The notes under the pieces were generated by a model. The model saw nothing but the letters and a program-made list of their open reading frames with translations, was not told the origin of the DNA and searched no databases. Positions 3,513-10,900 of a stretch of DNA of 11,037 nucleotides are shown here, one piece after another. This stretch comes from a virus (lineage: Duplodnaviria > Heunggongvirae > Uroviricota > Caudoviricetes). Both the position numbers and the translations under genes were made by a program. Every line of letters starts with the position of its first letter. Position 1 is the first letter of the stretch. Location: IMG/VR virus record IMGVR_UViG_2778261674_000010, one strand, 5' to 3'.

Positions 3513-3722
3513 TTAATTTGAATACAATGCAATTCTCGAGGACTGAAGTTTCTCGCAATTAAAATTTATCAGTTTTACTTTCTGCTCTCTGGAAACGCCT
3601 GCTTCTTTTTTACCTGAGAGCATTTTTTCGCATTCTGATTTCGTTAGTTTAGATTTTGAATATCTTGTCCAGTTAGTAGGAGTGCCACCTTCCTTTTCAA
3701 TAGTGGCGGTAATTTTATACAT
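3513..3722 (-). CDS. ydaC: Rac prophage small protein YdaC (function unknown)
   Basis: 69 aa from the ATG at 3722..3720: MYKITATIEKEGGTPTNWTRYSKSKLTKSECEKMLSGKKEAGVSREQKVKLINFNCEKLQSSRIALYSN. A strong SD GGAGGTG sits inside the last codons of ralR. Overlaps ralR by 8 nt. Confidence 0.8.
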   Translation of the reverse strand: MYKITATIEKEGGTPTNWTRYSKSKLTKSECEKMLSGKKEAGVSREQKVKLINFNCEKLQSSRIALYSN

Positions 3723-9303: not shown

Positions 9304-9438
9304 TCACATCTTGTTGCTACGTATAGCGACTTCTGCCTGCCAGAGATCCCAGTCGTTGCTGCGTAAAGCCTGCACAGCCTGGTTGTAAGTGATACCGCAA
9401 CAATCCATCAAATACTGAACTACTTCGTAATGCACCAT
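9304..9438 (-). CDS. ydaG: Small protein YdaG (function unknown)
   Basis: Hand translation from the ATG at 9438..9436 gives 44 aa: MVHYEVVQYLMDCCGITYNQAVQALRSNDWDLWQAEVAIRSNKM. Strong SD AGGGGAGAG 5-6 nt upstream. Confidence 0.7.
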   Translation of the reverse strand: MVHYEVVQYLMDCCGITYNQAVQALRSNDWDLWQAEVAIRSNKM

Positions 9439-9602
9439 CTTATCTCTCCCCTTAACGCCGGGTGGCGGAACTAACTGCTGCACTGCAAAATTTGAATCCC
9501 GCCGTCATGTTCTTACGCCTCGGGCTGGCTACTTAACCCCTGACCACTGCCTGGTAACTCGAAGTATTGCCCTGCATTCTGTGGGGCGGGGTGGGTGGCA
9601 GG

Positions 9603-9655
9603 CATATAATGTACTTTGTGTTCATTGTTGTAAAGTACATTTAGTACATTTTATG
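9603..9655. promoter_or_regulatory. Putative OL-like operator/promoter cluster downstream of racR and upstream of ydaG-ydaF
   Basis: ATGTACT at 9609-9615 and its reverse complement AGTACAT at 9634-9640 and 9643-9649. The first two form a 9-bp inverted repeat (ATGTACTTT / AAAGTACAT) with a 14-bp spacer; the last two are tandem at 9-bp spacing. Candidate minus-strand promoter: -35 TTTACA (9634..9629), 17-bp spacer, -10 CATTAT (9611..9606). A plus-strand TATAAT sits at 9605-9610. The same 7-mer recurs in the racR-ydaS region. Confidence 0.45.
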
Positions 9656-9724
9656 TGTAAAAAAATGAGATGGGATAAAGTGAAGCACAAACCCGGAGGA
9701 AGGCGCTACCGGATTTATGCTGGT

Positions 9725-10144
9725 TTAAGAGGCTTTTTGTTTTTTCTTTCGTGCTAACTCTTCGTAAATTGCATTGTACTTCTGTTTTTTCTCTTCAAGA
9801 GTTTTTAAAAGTTCATCTGTCTCACTGTCAGGGAGCTCGTCCAGAAGGTCAATGATGATTTTTTGTCTTGGATTTAACTCCTGATAGAAACGTACCTGTC
9901 CACTTTCTTCTGTATCCTCTCCCAAAAGATAGGTTGGTGTTGTTCCTATTAGTGTTGCTAATTCCCTTAATTTCTCCCGGCGAGGAATTGTTTCGCCATT
10001 AAACCATTTGCTAACCGCTTTTGGTGTTAATTTCATTCGACGGGCAATTTCTGCCTGCCTTCCATGTTGTTCATAACCAGCGTTTTCACAGGCTAGCGCA
10101 AGCCTACTGGCGAACTCTTTACGCGCTTTATCTTCATGAACCAT
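9725..10144 (-). CDS. racR: RacR, cI-like prophage repressor (XRE-family helix-turn-helix)
   Basis: 139 aa from the ATG at 10144..10142: MVHEDKARKEFASRLALACENAGYEQHGRQAEIARRMKLTPKAVSKWFNGETIPRREKLRELATLIGTTPTYLLGE..., with an N-terminal HTH. No SD upstream; a candidate -10 TATCAT ends 7 nt before the ATG, which suggests a leaderless mRNA. Start codon is uncertain: I recall a longer annotated product, but the upstream in-frame codons contain no ATG, GTG or TTG. Confidence 0.85.
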   Translation of the reverse strand: MVHEDKARKEFASRLALACENAGYEQHGRQAEIARRMKLTPKAVSKWFNGETIPRREKLRELATLIGTTPTYLLGEDTEESGQVRFYQELNPRQKIIIDLLDELPDSETDELLKTLEEKKQKYNAIYEELARKKKQKAS

Positions 10145-10223
10145 AAGTTCAATGATATTCGCTCTTGAATGTACTGTCAGTTCTGTTATAGCATGTACTC
10201 AAAGTTCACATTGTGAGGGTGAT
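10145..10223. promoter_or_regulatory. Divergent racR/ydaS promoter-operator region (OR-like immunity switch)
   Basis: Candidate ydaS promoter (+): -35 TTGAAT 10165-10170, 16-bp spacer, TGtTATAGC extended -10 at 10184-10192. Candidate racR promoter (-): -35 CTGACA (10180..10175), 17-bp spacer, -10 TATCAT (10157..10152). Direct repeats of ATGTACT at 10169-10175 and 10193-10199 overlap these elements; AAGTTCA repeats at 10145-10151 and 10202-10208. Confidence 0.5.
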
Positions 10224-10478
10224 ATGAACCAGAAAACACTTGAAGATGTAATCAAAACTGTTCGCGTTGCTGTTGTGGCCGACGTTTGTGGTGTCAGCCA
10301 AAGAGCAATCTATAAATGGATGGATAACGGAAAATTGCCTCGCACAGAATATACCGGCGAAACAAATTACGCTGAAAAAATCGCTCTTGCATCAAACGGA
10401 TTATTTTCTGCCGATGCAATTTTAACTATTGGCAGGAATAAAACTACTACGAAAAAGCTGATGGGAGTTGATTCATGA
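10224..10478 (+). CDS. ydaS: YdaS, Cro-like HTH protein (reported toxic when derepressed)
   Basis: 84 aa from the ATG at 10224: MNQKTLEDVIKTVRVAVVADVCGVSQRAIYKWMDNGKLP..., with HTH (VSQRAIYKWMDNGK). SD GAGGG 5 nt upstream. The ORF-track ATG at 10152 lies within the promoter and has no SD. Stop overlaps the ydaT start (ATGA). Confidence 0.8.
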   Translation: MNQKTLEDVIKTVRVAVVADVCGVSQRAIYKWMDNGKLPRTEYTGETNYAEKIALASNGLFSADAILTIGRNKTTTKKLMGVDS

Positions 10479-10900
10479 AAATCAAGCATGAACACATCCG
10501 CATGGCGATGAATGCCTGGGCGCATCCGGACGGCGAAAAAGTACCGGCTGCGAAAATTACCAAAGCGTATTTCGAGCTGGGAATGACGTTCCCGGAACTG
10601 TATGACGACAGCCATCCGGAAGCCCTGGCTCGCAATACTCAGAAAATTTTCCGCTGGGTGGAGAAAGACACCCCTGATGCGGTTAAAAAAATTCAGGCGT
10701 TGTTACCAGCTATCGAAAAAGCAATGCCACCTCTGCTGGTGGCCCGAATGCGCAGTCATAGCTCAGCCTATTTTCGGGAACTAGTGGAGACGCGGGAACG
10801 ACTGGTGAGAGACGCTGATGATTTTGTCGCAGTGGCGATCGCTGGTTTCAACCAGATGAATCGTGGTGGCCCTGCAGGAAATATTGTGGCTGTGCATTGA
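10475..10900 (+). CDS. ydaT: YdaT (reported CII-like/toxic protein of the Rac immunity region)
   Basis: 141-aa ORF beginning MKIKHEHIRMAMNAWAHPDGEKVPAAKITKAYFELGMTFPELYDD. SD GGGAG 7 nt upstream. Translationally coupled to ydaS. Confidence 0.85.
   Translation: MKIKHEHIRMAMNAWAHPDGEKVPAAKITKAYFELGMTFPELYDDSHPEALARNTQKIFRWVEKDTPDAVKKIQALLPAIEKAMPPLLVARMRSHSSAYFRELVETRERLVRDADDFVAVAIAGFNQMNRGGPAGNIVAVH

Follow-up and report, generated by a model that had tools for sequence, protein, structure and literature searches.

Which repressor controls the short divergent region between the genes at the racR and ydaS positions of a Rac-like prophage, through which DNA sites would it act, and where does its own transcript begin? 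Here we address these questions in a window of 11,037 nucleotides, by which we mean the whole stretch of DNA that was analysed. A first-pass annotation of this DNA had described a compact racR/ydaS switch whose architecture was thought to be undefined; our analysis supports a divergent repressor/cro-type switch in the gap, with other genes and a familiar design. Taking the right and left operator sites, the repressor, its promoters and a leaderless repressor mRNA together as one explanation, we consider it likely that positions 10137-10223 are the right operator (OR) of a lambdoid immunity switch belonging to the HK022/933W operator family.

The locus and its prophage setting

The gap runs from 10145 to 10223, between a repressor ATG at 10144 on the minus strand and a rightward ATG at 10224, and the same 79 bp appear in the PGAP annotation of an identical locus. 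Annotation of the identical locus also places the switch in a Rac-like prophage at ttcA, with a left arm of intR-recET-kilR-sieB-ydaF-ydaG. When aligned with K-12 Rac, the window is near-identical up to position 9598; homology ends at 9598/9599, shortly downstream of the -10 element of the leftward early promoter, PL. The DNA from about 9599 to 10455 is a predicted HK022-type immunity cassette, lying between Rac flanks.

In the closest complete genome the prophage is defective. Of the 1063 complete E. coli genomes with a match to the 161-bp OR stretch (10100-10260), 999 share it at 99% identity or more, E. coli 042 and O157:H7 isolates being examples of 100% identity, and carriers of the allele, which include strain 042 as well as O157:H7 and O111:H8 strains, make up ~19%, roughly one in five, of complete E. 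coli genomes. A scan of 9400-10600 found no terminators, and an Rfam search returned no RNA family match in the 10145-10223 region.

Gene identities at the racR and ydaS positions

The gene at the racR position (9725-10144, minus strand) encodes a 139-aa immunity repressor with a Pfam HTH_3 domain, whose match to K-12 RacR is limited to a 33-residue helix-turn-helix stretch in which 12 residues agree. The protein is 100% identical to the 'CI repressor' of phage Tritos, and its N-terminal domain shares 47.5% identity with that of HK022 CI and 50.7% with that of 933W-type CI. Its recognition helix, TPKAVSKWFNGE, is near-identical to that of HK022 CI, TPKAISKWFNGE, and by alignment it has both K42 and K46, the residues through which the 933W repressor makes base contacts (PMC3317979). 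All aligned relatives of the repressor begin MV(H/Q).

At the ydaS position, a cro-type gene (10224-10478, plus strand; 84 aa; Shine-Dalgarno GAGGG at 10215-10219; start as in the PGAP annotation of the identical locus) encodes a protein 60% identical to HK022 Cro (E 1e-33), whose match to K-12 YdaS (E 0.075 over 18 aa) is not significant. The adjoining ydaT-type gene, the CII equivalent (10475-10900, plus strand; 141 aa; Pfam YdaT_toxin; PHROG 163, CII-like activator), has a product near-identical to PDB 3c4r that matches CP-933P YdaT (PDB 8bt1) at E 1.8e-80; K-12 YdaT is a clear but distant homologue, at 33%. Pairing with the anti-Shine-Dalgarno sequence reaches -6.1 kcal/mol for the cro-type gene and -6.8 kcal/mol for ydaT.

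The names racR and ydaS therefore do not suit these two genes and, because the genes are not those of K-12, the essentiality of RacR through ydaS/ydaT toxicity, which the first-pass annotation had carried over, belongs to a set of K-12 facts that cannot simply be transferred. A search for the K-12 RacR motif gave one two-mismatch match in the window against 2.56 expected, outside the gap, and the operator motif of the window, TGWAC-N5-GTWCA, was not found in K-12 Rac. What the two prophages share is the ttcA site, the left arm, and the three-operator and leaderless logic (PMC5700373, PMC5700377, PMC9638921); they differ in having unrelated repressors, YdaS-position proteins and operators, the K-12 operator being WTAGGC-n3-GCCTAW (PMC9638921), and in the size of the gap, which is 123 bp in K-12 versus 79 bp here, and K-12 racR also has a Shine-Dalgarno sequence. 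This corrects an annotation habit: a Rac-like prophage may have genes other than those for RacR and YdaS in the racR/ydaS position, and K-12 results on RacR essentiality, operators and cross-talk should not be applied to the carriers of this allele.

Predicted operator sites in two clusters

Both copies of ATGTACT that had been reported for the gap are present, at 10169-10175 and 10193-10199. The window holds five copies in all against 0.98 expected, a count that none of 200 shuffles reached, and the three further copies, at 9609 (plus strand) and at 9634 and 9643 (minus strand), form a second cluster on the far side of the repressor gene, past its 3' end. The predicted operator unit is a 15-bp pseudo-palindrome, TGWAC-N5-GTWCA, and ATGTACT is its left half together with one flanking base; as half of a known kind of repressor site, the repeated motif is a real but ordinary find. 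At one mismatch or fewer the pseudo-palindrome matches seven times in the window against 1.13 expected, and five of these matches lie in the two clusters flanking the repressor gene. The earlier motif set was thus correct for the two copies in the gap and incomplete beyond them, missing a site over the repressor ATG and the two-site cluster on the far side of the gene.

OR1 (10194-10208, TGTACTCAAAGTTCA; zero mismatches; second-best PWM match) lies over the predicted start of the rightward promoter, PR, and holds the second ATGTACT, while OR2 (10170-10184, TGTACTGTCAGTTCT; one mismatch) lies inside the PR spacer and holds the first. OR3 (10137-10151, TGAACCATAAGTTCA), the best PWM match in the window at 21.3 bits, has its centre at 10144, the A of the repressor start codon, so that its inner half-site encodes codons 2-3 (Val-His), and it is identical to HK022 OR3. 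Of the two left operators, the one that we name OL1 (9610-9624, TGTACTTTGTGTTCA; zero mismatches; fifth-best PWM match) falls within the PL spacer and extends into the -10, and OL2 (9634-9648, AGTACATTTAGTACA), at a start-to-start distance of 24 bp from OL1, borders directly on the PL -35. The half-sites of OL2 are two of the five ATGTACT copies, on the minus strand.

These sites, their enrichment, the conserved positions and the protein homologies were all computed here. The OR and OL regions align with their HK022 counterparts base for base; the HK022 operator sequences were assigned from sequence in the present analysis, and binding of HK022 CI to both regions has been published (Carlson & Little 1993, cited in PMC8053113). 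Operator positions, half-sites and a repressor -10 of the form TAnnnT, 7 nt from the ATG, are shared by HK022, a 933W-type phage and Salmonella and Raoultella relatives. In seven loci (Tritos, HK022, 933W-type, Salmonella L007, JGI L010, L012 and L013) OR3 sits at offset 0 relative to the repressor ATG, and the three site centres fall at offsets 0/33/57 in Tritos, HK022, the Salmonella prophage L007, a JGI contig and two S24-type loci; a second Salmonella locus, L008, reads -3/30/54, the start coordinate used for it being 3 nt off. The OL pair is spaced by 24 bp in all relatives that have OL, with the same relative position of OL1 and OL2 in the Tritos, HK022, Salmonella and JGI loci, and Tritos differs from the window at OR1 in the central spacer alone.

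Conservation is concentrated in the half-sites, which differ from diverged relatives at 0-3 of 30 positions, versus 18-22 of 42 positions for the inter-operator DNA (Fisher p 0.0002-0.002). A PWM built from the relatives' sites alone ranks the five OR/OL sites as the top five in 11 kb, a test that is partly circular because the sites in the relatives were chosen with the same pattern. As a check on the method, the same scan recovers a further HK022 site ~300 bp to the right of OR, in agreement with the literature, whereas no PWM match above 3 bits was found to the right of 10208 in the window.

For the chemistry of such operators, as for cooperative binding and leaderless starts, we lean on published relatives, and the biochemical dissection of the 933W operators, which are of the same family, is one such guide: they are 15-bp dyads in which G2, A4 and C5 are essential, position 3 is preferably T, and position 6 is T or C (PMC3317979). 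The TGTACT and TGAACC of the window fit these rules. The resemblance to 933W includes rotational symmetry over 15 bp with the half-site nG(A/T)AC(T/C) (PMC3317979, PMC4848623), three OR sites with OR3 on the cI ATG, and the N-terminal domain with its two conserved lysines. The differences are a repressor of S24 type that is reportedly non-cooperative (PMC3317979, PMC4848623), an OR2-OR3 distance 1 bp shorter, half-sites that favour CG(T/A)AC, and a different Cro and CII.

The first-pass annotation had treated the direct repeat itself as the unit, and it is conceivable that the two copies of ATGTACT, 24 bp apart, serve as operator units of a K-12-type RacR in an undescribed architecture. Direct-repeat recognition is known for some phage repressors, such as P2 C, and the two copies do exist and belong to an enriched motif; in CP-933P, moreover, direct and inverted repeats are mixed (PMC8630535). 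However, the window repressor is not a RacR homologue, relatives read TGAAC in place of TGTAC, and the leading A becomes T in L010, whereas the other half-site, GTTC(A/T) at a distance of 5 bp, is conserved. Furthermore, OR3 is the best-conserved site and contains no ATGTACT, the two minus-strand OL copies are the two halves of a single dyad, and 933W biochemistry also gives a 15-bp dyad (PMC3317979). We therefore hold the direct-repeat reading to be very improbable: the place of the repeated motif within operators stands, and the conserved unit is the 15-bp dyad. Longer direct repeats that would extend ATGTACT (repeat families D2 and D4) gave two-copy matches of just 71-81%, and the dyad was preferred. 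Symmetry around GTAC alone, judged by eye, covers 10 of 14 positions at OR2 and nothing past GTAC at OR1.

A still more sceptical reading is that the motif clusters are a chance or compositional by-product of AT-rich promoter DNA, a decayed switch with no operator function. The defective state of the prophage in the closest complete genome would be in keeping with this, as would the imperfect PR -10 (TATAGC, which lacks the conserved final T) and the best PWM score of shuffled windows, which at its 95th percentile is 15.3 and leaves just two sites individually significant. Yet there are five sites in two clusters with conserved spacing, a count reached in 0 of 200 shuffles; the geometry is identical in the complete 46-kb Tritos genome, where the repressor is identical as well; the OR stretch is held nearly unchanged across the 999 genomes noted above; and the selective conservation of half-sites already contradicts decay. 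We regard a chance origin as hardly credible.

Returning to the reading of the five sites as OR and OL operators, the 139-aa repressor would bind the TGWAC-N5-GTWCA pseudo-palindromes as a dimer. OR1 and OR2 cover the PR start and spacer, and their occupation would turn off the cro-type and ydaT genes; occupation of OR3, on the +1/ATG of the repressor gene, would give negative autoregulation; and the OL sites, which cover PL, would allow kilR/recET to be silenced. The cro-type protein is expected at the same sites as the repressor. Repressor binding in this allele, like the transcription start and the effect of OR2 on the repressor promoter (activation or repression), is something that we infer from sequence. 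The operator map supplies exact targets for studies of kilR/recET silencing or of immunity to HK022-like phages.

Predicted promoters and start of the repressor transcript

The back-to-back sigma70-like promoters proposed for the gap fared unequally. The PRM-like repressor promoter (10152-10180, minus strand), with a -35 of CTGACA (10180-10175), a 17-nt spacer and a -10 of TATCAT (10157-10152), scores 10 of 12 in our scan. The PR-like rightward promoter (10165-10192, plus strand), with a -35 of TTGAAT (10165-10170), a 16-nt spacer and an extended -10 of TGtTATAGC (10184-10192), fails the generic scan owing to the missing T at hexamer position 6 of TATAGC; its basis is positional homology, to TTGACT-16-CATAAT in HK022 and to CATAAT or TATAAT in other relatives, and its start is predicted at ~10197-10201, within OR1. 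The PL-like leftward early promoter (9606-9634, minus strand; -35 TTTACA at 9634-9629, 17-nt spacer, -10 CATTAT at 9611-9606) scores 9 of 12, lies in a region that aligns with HK022 OL/PL, and would transcribe ydaG/ydaF/kilR/recET leftwards. Promoter-like matches in 9400-10600 numbered two against 1.9 expected, which is not above chance.

As the first-pass annotation had noticed, seven nucleotides (TGAACTT) separate TATCAT from the repressor ATG, and a Shine-Dalgarno sequence is lacking, the 22 nt upstream of the ATG pairing with the anti-Shine-Dalgarno at -2.2 kcal/mol. Given this distance, PRM (CTGACA-17-TATCAT) is predicted to initiate at the A of the ATG or 1 nt before it, which would produce a leaderless maintenance mRNA; the spacing would also accommodate initiation at the preceding T, which would leave a 1-nt leader. 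A TAnnnT hexamer ending exactly 7 nt before the ATG is found in six diverged relatives (TATAGT, TAGTAT, TATAAT, TATGAT, TACAAT), and the PMC8053113 supplement labels the HK022 'PM-10' at the same place as TATCAT. With this hexamer kept in relatives and no Shine-Dalgarno sequence, a leaderless repressor mRNA, as first proposed, is the best reading of the sequence and of the published relatives. TACATT, 23 nt upstream of the ATG, was considered as the PRM -10 and set aside, as it is not conserved where relatives read TGAAC. Our literature search found no paper linking 'leaderless' to HK022 cI and none on phage Tritos.

In lambda, too, PR and PRM diverge, three OR sites are present and OL is found on the far side of the repressor gene; transcription of cI from PRM begins at the AUG itself, and a second promoter, dependent on CII, yields an mRNA with a leader. 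The window shares the divergent PR/PRM, the three OR sites, the position of OL and the predicted start at the AUG, together with a probable second promoter of this kind. The operators of lambda are 17 bp in length, however, and its proteins are not closely related to those of the window; furthermore, lambda OR3 and OR2 are centred at ~-19 and -42 of PRM, as opposed to ~+1 and -33 here. An operator centred at ~-33 that contains the -35 normally blocks RNA polymerase rather than activating it, so autoregulation may differ from that of lambda. The central bases of OR2 also serve as the PRM -35, and the OR2 spacer, T(G/A/T)TCA, is conserved, unlike those of OR1 and OR3.

It is possible that the operators are real and that the repressor mRNA is nonetheless not leaderless in vivo, arising instead from an upstream promoter, either a YdaT-dependent, PRE-like one at ~10468-10500 or one within OR, with TATCAT unused. 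An exact copy of the YdaT operator OM, TTGATTCATGAAAATCAA, lies at 10468-10485, at the junction of the cro end and the ydaT start, and is the sole zero-mismatch match in the window. Both the OM consensus, TTGATTN6AATCAA, and its location match CP-933P, in which PRE drives the repressor operon when YdaT is made (PMC9986795). The OM copy probably marks a PRE-like leftward promoter, a likely establishment promoter from which a second, leadered repressor transcript would arise. K-12 racR, for its part, has three start sites (PMC9638921), and the overlap of OR2 with the PRM -35 could weaken PRM. Such a source of the mRNA is harder to reconcile with the TAnnnT element, which keeps the same 7-nt distance in the six relatives while its inner bases vary, or with the lack of a Shine-Dalgarno sequence for a leadered mRNA to use. 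YdaT is repressed in the lysogen, which consequently needs a maintenance promoter, and leaderless and leadered transcripts can coexist, as in lambda. Moreover, CP-933P and K-12 Rac, which have the same layout with other immunity types, are leaderless by experiment (PMC8630535, PMC9638921). A repressor mRNA that is not leaderless in vivo thus appears unlikely, and we retain PRM as the predicted source of the leaderless one.

Precedents for the architecture

The locus is otherwise a textbook lambdoid switch, and the suggestion that its architecture was undefined does not survive comparison with 933W (PMC3317979) and HK022 (cited in PMC8053113), in which that architecture has already been defined experimentally, or with K-12 RacR and paaR2. 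A 2022 study of K-12 RacR (PMC9638921) located three dyad operators, the third of which covers the start codon of the repressor gene, and showed that the major racR transcript has no leader; in 2021, 5' RACE together with N-terminal sequencing had shown the paaR2 mRNA of CP-933P to lack a leader as well (PMC8630535). The PaaR2/YdaS/YdaT region of CP-933P (O157:H7) also resembles the window in its 97-bp intergenic region, back-to-back PR/PRM, and OL with PL downstream (PMC8630535), in a YdaT close to that of the window and in the OM site at the same place (PMC9986795); it differs in its GTTTAGTAA-type palindromic operators and in its repressor, which heads a toxin-antitoxin operon.

HK022 is alike in its alignable OR and OL, its 15-bp dyads at 0/33/57, its OL pair 24 bp apart and its PRM -10 at 7 nt from the ATG. 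The window departs from it in assigning the CII function to a YdaT-type protein, in an OL-to-OR distance of ~0.53 kb compared with ~0.8 kb in HK022, in lacking the further site to the right of OR, and in the repressor itself, since HK022 CI has 235 aa and a self-cleaving S24 C-terminal domain whereas the 139-aa window repressor ends in a DicA-like two-helix tail.

The repressor tail and a possible domain chimera

The repressor consists of an HTH_3 DNA-binding domain of HK022/933W CI type (residues ~1-76), a linker, and the two-helix DicA-like C-terminal domain. No Pfam match to Peptidase_S24 was found in it, the chain stopping at residue 139 with the DicA-like tail, while close relatives of the N-terminal domain carry PF00717 and S24-bearing repressors are 62-72% identical to the window repressor. 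DicA aligns at 29% identity (E 5e-15), C-terminal domain included. A single-sequence AlphaFold2 model of the repressor has a mean pLDDT of 53, and secondary structure alone was taken from it.

In length (~135-150 aa), in having no S24 domain and in a C-terminal domain alignable with DicA, the protein resembles the DicA/Gifsy class; its DNA-binding domain and operators are, by contrast, of HK022/933W type and not DicA type. A consensus search of the window for LexA boxes (up to three mismatches) found none, and no antirepressor gene turned up there; genes of that kind are usually located away from the immunity region. For short non-cleavable repressors such as DicA of Qin and GfoR/GtgR of Gifsy, inactivation by antirepressors, and not by RecA-stimulated cleavage, has been proposed (PMC3121763).

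Because a DicA-like tail replaces the S24 domain that mediates cooperativity in HK022 CI, cooperative binding and looping are not assured here. We tentatively suggest, as a minority possibility, that the repressor is a natural domain chimera in which an HK022-type DNA-binding domain was set on a DicA-type tail with the operator geometry (24 bp and 33 bp) unchanged. Were this so, and were the tail to give the same pairwise cooperativity, the DNA-binding domains, and not the oligomerisation domain, would determine how the operators are spaced. Under the same condition, a repressor insensitive to RecA, perhaps controlled by an antirepressor, would be present in ~19% of complete E. coli genomes and could confer immunity to phages of the HK022 immunity type. 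Both halves of the protein occur in other combinations: HK022-like phages have the DNA-binding domain fused to S24 peptidase tails, and in the O157:H7 Z903 cassette, at the same prophage position, the DicA-type tail goes with an unrelated DNA-binding domain and different operators.

Identity of the immunity genes

The 79-bp gap at 10145-10223 agrees with the ORF bounds (repressor gene at 9725-10144 on the minus strand, rightward gene from 10224 on the plus strand) and with the PGAP annotation of an identical locus, but the first-pass annotation's naming of the flanking pair as racR/ydaS does not hold. The repressor aligns with K-12 RacR over the helix-turn-helix only (12/33 residues), and the rightward protein gives nothing significant against K-12 YdaS; judged by sequence, the immunity genes of the window are not the K-12 ones. 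The rightward protein is 60% identical to HK022 Cro (E 1e-33). The repressor is 100% identical to the ‘CI repressor’ of phage Tritos (46 kb), and its N-terminal domain shares 47.5% identity with HK022 CI, 50.7% with 933W-type CI and 62-72% with Klebsiella/Raoultella S24-peptidase repressors; in the alignment its recognition helix (TPKAVSKWFNGE) nearly matches the HK022 one (TPKAISKWFNGE). Pfam places HTH_3 in the repressor and finds no S24 domain there. With its tail included, the protein is 29% identical to DicA of prophage Qin (E 5e-15), and a low-confidence AlphaFold model (pLDDT 53) comprises five helices, a linker and two C-terminal helices. The third gene product is near-identical to PDB 3c4r and matches CP-933P YdaT (8bt1) with an E-value of 1.8e-80.

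Predicted operators in the gap and beyond the repressor gene

In window orientation, HK022 OR and the gap correspond base for base, and HK022 OL aligns with 9600-9660. The repeat consists of a 15-bp pseudo-palindrome, TGWAC-N5-GTWCA, which at up to one mismatch matches seven times in the window (1.13 expected); five of these are the predicted operators OR3 (10137-10151, TGAACCATAAGTTCA), OR2 (10170-10184, TGTACTGTCAGTTCT) and OR1 (10194-10208, TGTACTCAAAGTTCA) and an OL pair (9610-9624, TGTACTTTGTGTTCA; 9634-9648, AGTACATTTAGTACA). Scored with a weight matrix that draws solely on sites from HK022, a Salmonella prophage, a Raoultella locus and a further S24-type locus, exactly these come out as the window's top five, a ranking that is partly circular because the source sites were picked with the same pattern.

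The first-pass annotation had proposed ATGTACT as the repeated motif. Both gap copies are present (10169-10175, 10193-10199), but the set was incomplete: the 11,037-bp window holds five copies against 0.98 expected (0/200 shuffles reached five), the remaining three grouped at 9609-9649, just past the 3’ end of the repressor gene. ATGTACT is not the motif itself but covers positions 1-6 of the 15-bp dyad operator together with one flanking A, and the minus-strand copies at 9634 and 9643 are both halves of one dyad.

Operators of the 933W repressor are likewise 15 bp and rotationally symmetric, with an essential G at position 2, A at 4 and C at 5, a T at position 3 bound better than the consensus A, T or C at position 6, and contacts made by recognition-helix K42 and K46 (PMC3317979). 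The window half-sites TGTACT/TGAACC together with K42/K46 match these rules exactly. By its sequence, the element is a homologue of the right operators of HK022 and 933W and would work like them. In HK022, CI binding to neighbouring operators of OR and of OL is cooperative, with looping between both (PMC8053113), and in 933W PRM is already partly repressed via OR3 at the repressor concentration that fills OR2 (PMC4848623). Members of the repressor family begin M-V-(H/Q), coded by the OR3 inner half-site ATG GTT CAx (window 10137-10144); operator and repressor N-terminus constrain one another.

Predicted promoters and transcripts

The predicted repressor promoter PRM (CTGACA-17-TATCAT, 10180..10152, minus strand) matches at 10/12 positions in a sigma-70 scan, and its -10 (10157..10152) adjoins OR3. 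The centre of OR2 lies at about -33 of PRM, the conserved OR2 central bases being the PRM -35. As first described, TATCAT ends 7 nt before the repressor ATG (intervening TGAACTT) and the ATG lacks a Shine-Dalgarno sequence, the 22 nt upstream pairing with the anti-SD at only -2.2 kcal/mol, compared with -6.1 for the rightward gene and -6.8 for ydaT. Relatives carry TATAGT, TAGTAT, TATAAT, TATGAT or TACAAT at the PRM -10 position, all TAnnnT and all ending 7 nt before the ATG, and a ‘PM-10’ is labelled at the corresponding spot in HK022 (supplement of PMC8053113); transcription is accordingly expected to begin at the A of the ATG (10144) or at the preceding T. The CP-933P paaR2 mRNA is leaderless by 5’ RACE, N-terminal sequencing and mass spectrometry (PMC8630535), and a leaderless transcript is the strongest primer-extension product of K-12 racR (PMC9638921). 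Together, the TAnnnT position, the HK022 label and these two precedents uphold the leaderless repressor mRNA proposed earlier as a well-supported prediction for the window allele.

The rightward promoter PR is predicted at 10165-10192 (TTGAAT-16-TGtTATAGC) by positional homology to HK022 TTGACT-16-CATAAT; OR2 fills its spacer and OR1 covers its predicted start. In the leftward promoter PL, predicted at 9634..9606 (TTTACA-17-CATTAT), the OL sites lie over the spacer and adjoin the -35. The Tritos record (L003, 2667-2993) starts Cro at an upstream in-frame ATG, window 10152, to give 108 aa. This ATG corresponds, as reverse complement, to the PRM -10. The SD, like the homology to HK022 Cro, favours a start at 10224 (84 aa) instead.

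TTGATTN6AATCAA occurs without mismatch at 10468-10485, at the junction where the cro end meets the ydaT start, next to the gene for the 3c4r-like YdaT. CP-933P YdaT footprints its operator OM at this same junction, beside a PRE-like promoter (PMC9986795). The match suggests a YdaT-activated, PRE-like leftward promoter near 10468-10485, which makes it likely that establishment involves a second repressor transcript, this one with a leader.

Conservation among relatives

We compared loci whose repressors are 89%, 65% and 62% identical to that of the window, plus S24-type relatives. Site centres fall at 0/33/57 from the repressor ATG in Tritos, HK022, a Salmonella prophage (L007), a JGI contig and two S24-type loci; a second Salmonella prophage (L008) gives -3/30/54 because the start coordinate used there is 3 nt off. 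The OL pair is 24 bp apart wherever OL is present, and 933W-type OR shares the layout apart from a 1-bp deletion. Compared with the window, half-sites are changed at 0-3 of 30 positions, whereas inter-operator DNA differs at 18-22 of 42 (Fisher p 0.0002-0.002). Half-site changes are mostly TGTAC to TGAAC, so the 7-mer is not the conserved element; in the 89%-identical relative its leading A is T, yet all 45 operator bases are unaltered. The same scan finds the HK022 site ~300 bp right of OR as the literature describes, which validates the motif. Searches found neither the K-12 RacR motif in the window nor the HK022-type motif in K-12 Rac. Both Salmonella prophages have gained a HigB-toxin/HTH pair between repressor gene and OL, an insertion that is reminiscent of paaA2-parE2 in CP-933P and puts OL ~1.3 kb from OR.

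The window switch has every sequence-level defining feature of the HK022/933W family except the S24 C-terminal domain; with K-12 RacR/YdaS it shares prophage position and logic, but not sequence membership. Nor is the architecture undescribed, as had been supposed, the same logic having been mapped for K-12 in 2022 (PMC9638921). The switch is an uncharacterised member of a known operator family, its chimeric repressor being the one mildly unusual aspect. Such a chimera implies that induction takes a route other than RecA-stimulated cleavage, in line with the proposal for short repressors of DicA/Gifsy type (PMC3121763), and it serves as a natural test of a dependence of operator spacing on the oligomerisation domain.

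Prophage context

At ttcA, the window represents a Rac-like prophage; intR, xisR, ralR/RalA, recT, recE, racC, kilR, sieB and ydaF lie on its left side. Sharp mosaic joints are seen at 9598/9599 and about 10455/10456. At the first, which coincides with the predicted PL start, near-identity to K-12 Rac breaks off. Other E. coli genomes have no more than 9550-9593 and 10456-10500 in common with the window here, and these stretches enclose a different cassette of equal length (~954 bp); we therefore regard ~9599-10455 as an exchangeable immunity cassette. The allele occurs in 1047/5426 complete E. coli genomes; of 1063 genomes matching the 161-bp OR query (10100-10260), 999 do so at 99% identity or more.

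In the left arm, the RalA antitoxin sRNA (Rfam RF02694, 225 bits; 3538-3716) adjoins the ralR toxin gene. The window opens within an IS10 end (Rfam RNA-OUT at 10-79), whose terminus ...CATTAGGGGATTCATCAG finishes at 123; IS10 interrupts dbpA, the C-terminal part of which runs to 866, and the junction was found in 0/5,426 complete E. coli genomes searched. The ORF at the ydaG position (9304-9483) encodes 59 aa from a GTG, against 44 aa in PGAP, and has a marginal Pfam UBA_4 match (23.0 bits; cut-off 21.8). One of the alternative cassettes, in O157:H7 Z903 (L015, 544-1063), represents a third immunity type at the same prophage position: the C-terminal domain of its 139-aa repressor is very like the window's DicA-like tail and the N-terminal domain is unrelated, and its operator repeats are of another type, for example ACCTGTGGGTAT twice in the gap, TACCCATGGGTA past the repressor 3’ end and CCATAGGTAA spanning the repressor ATG.
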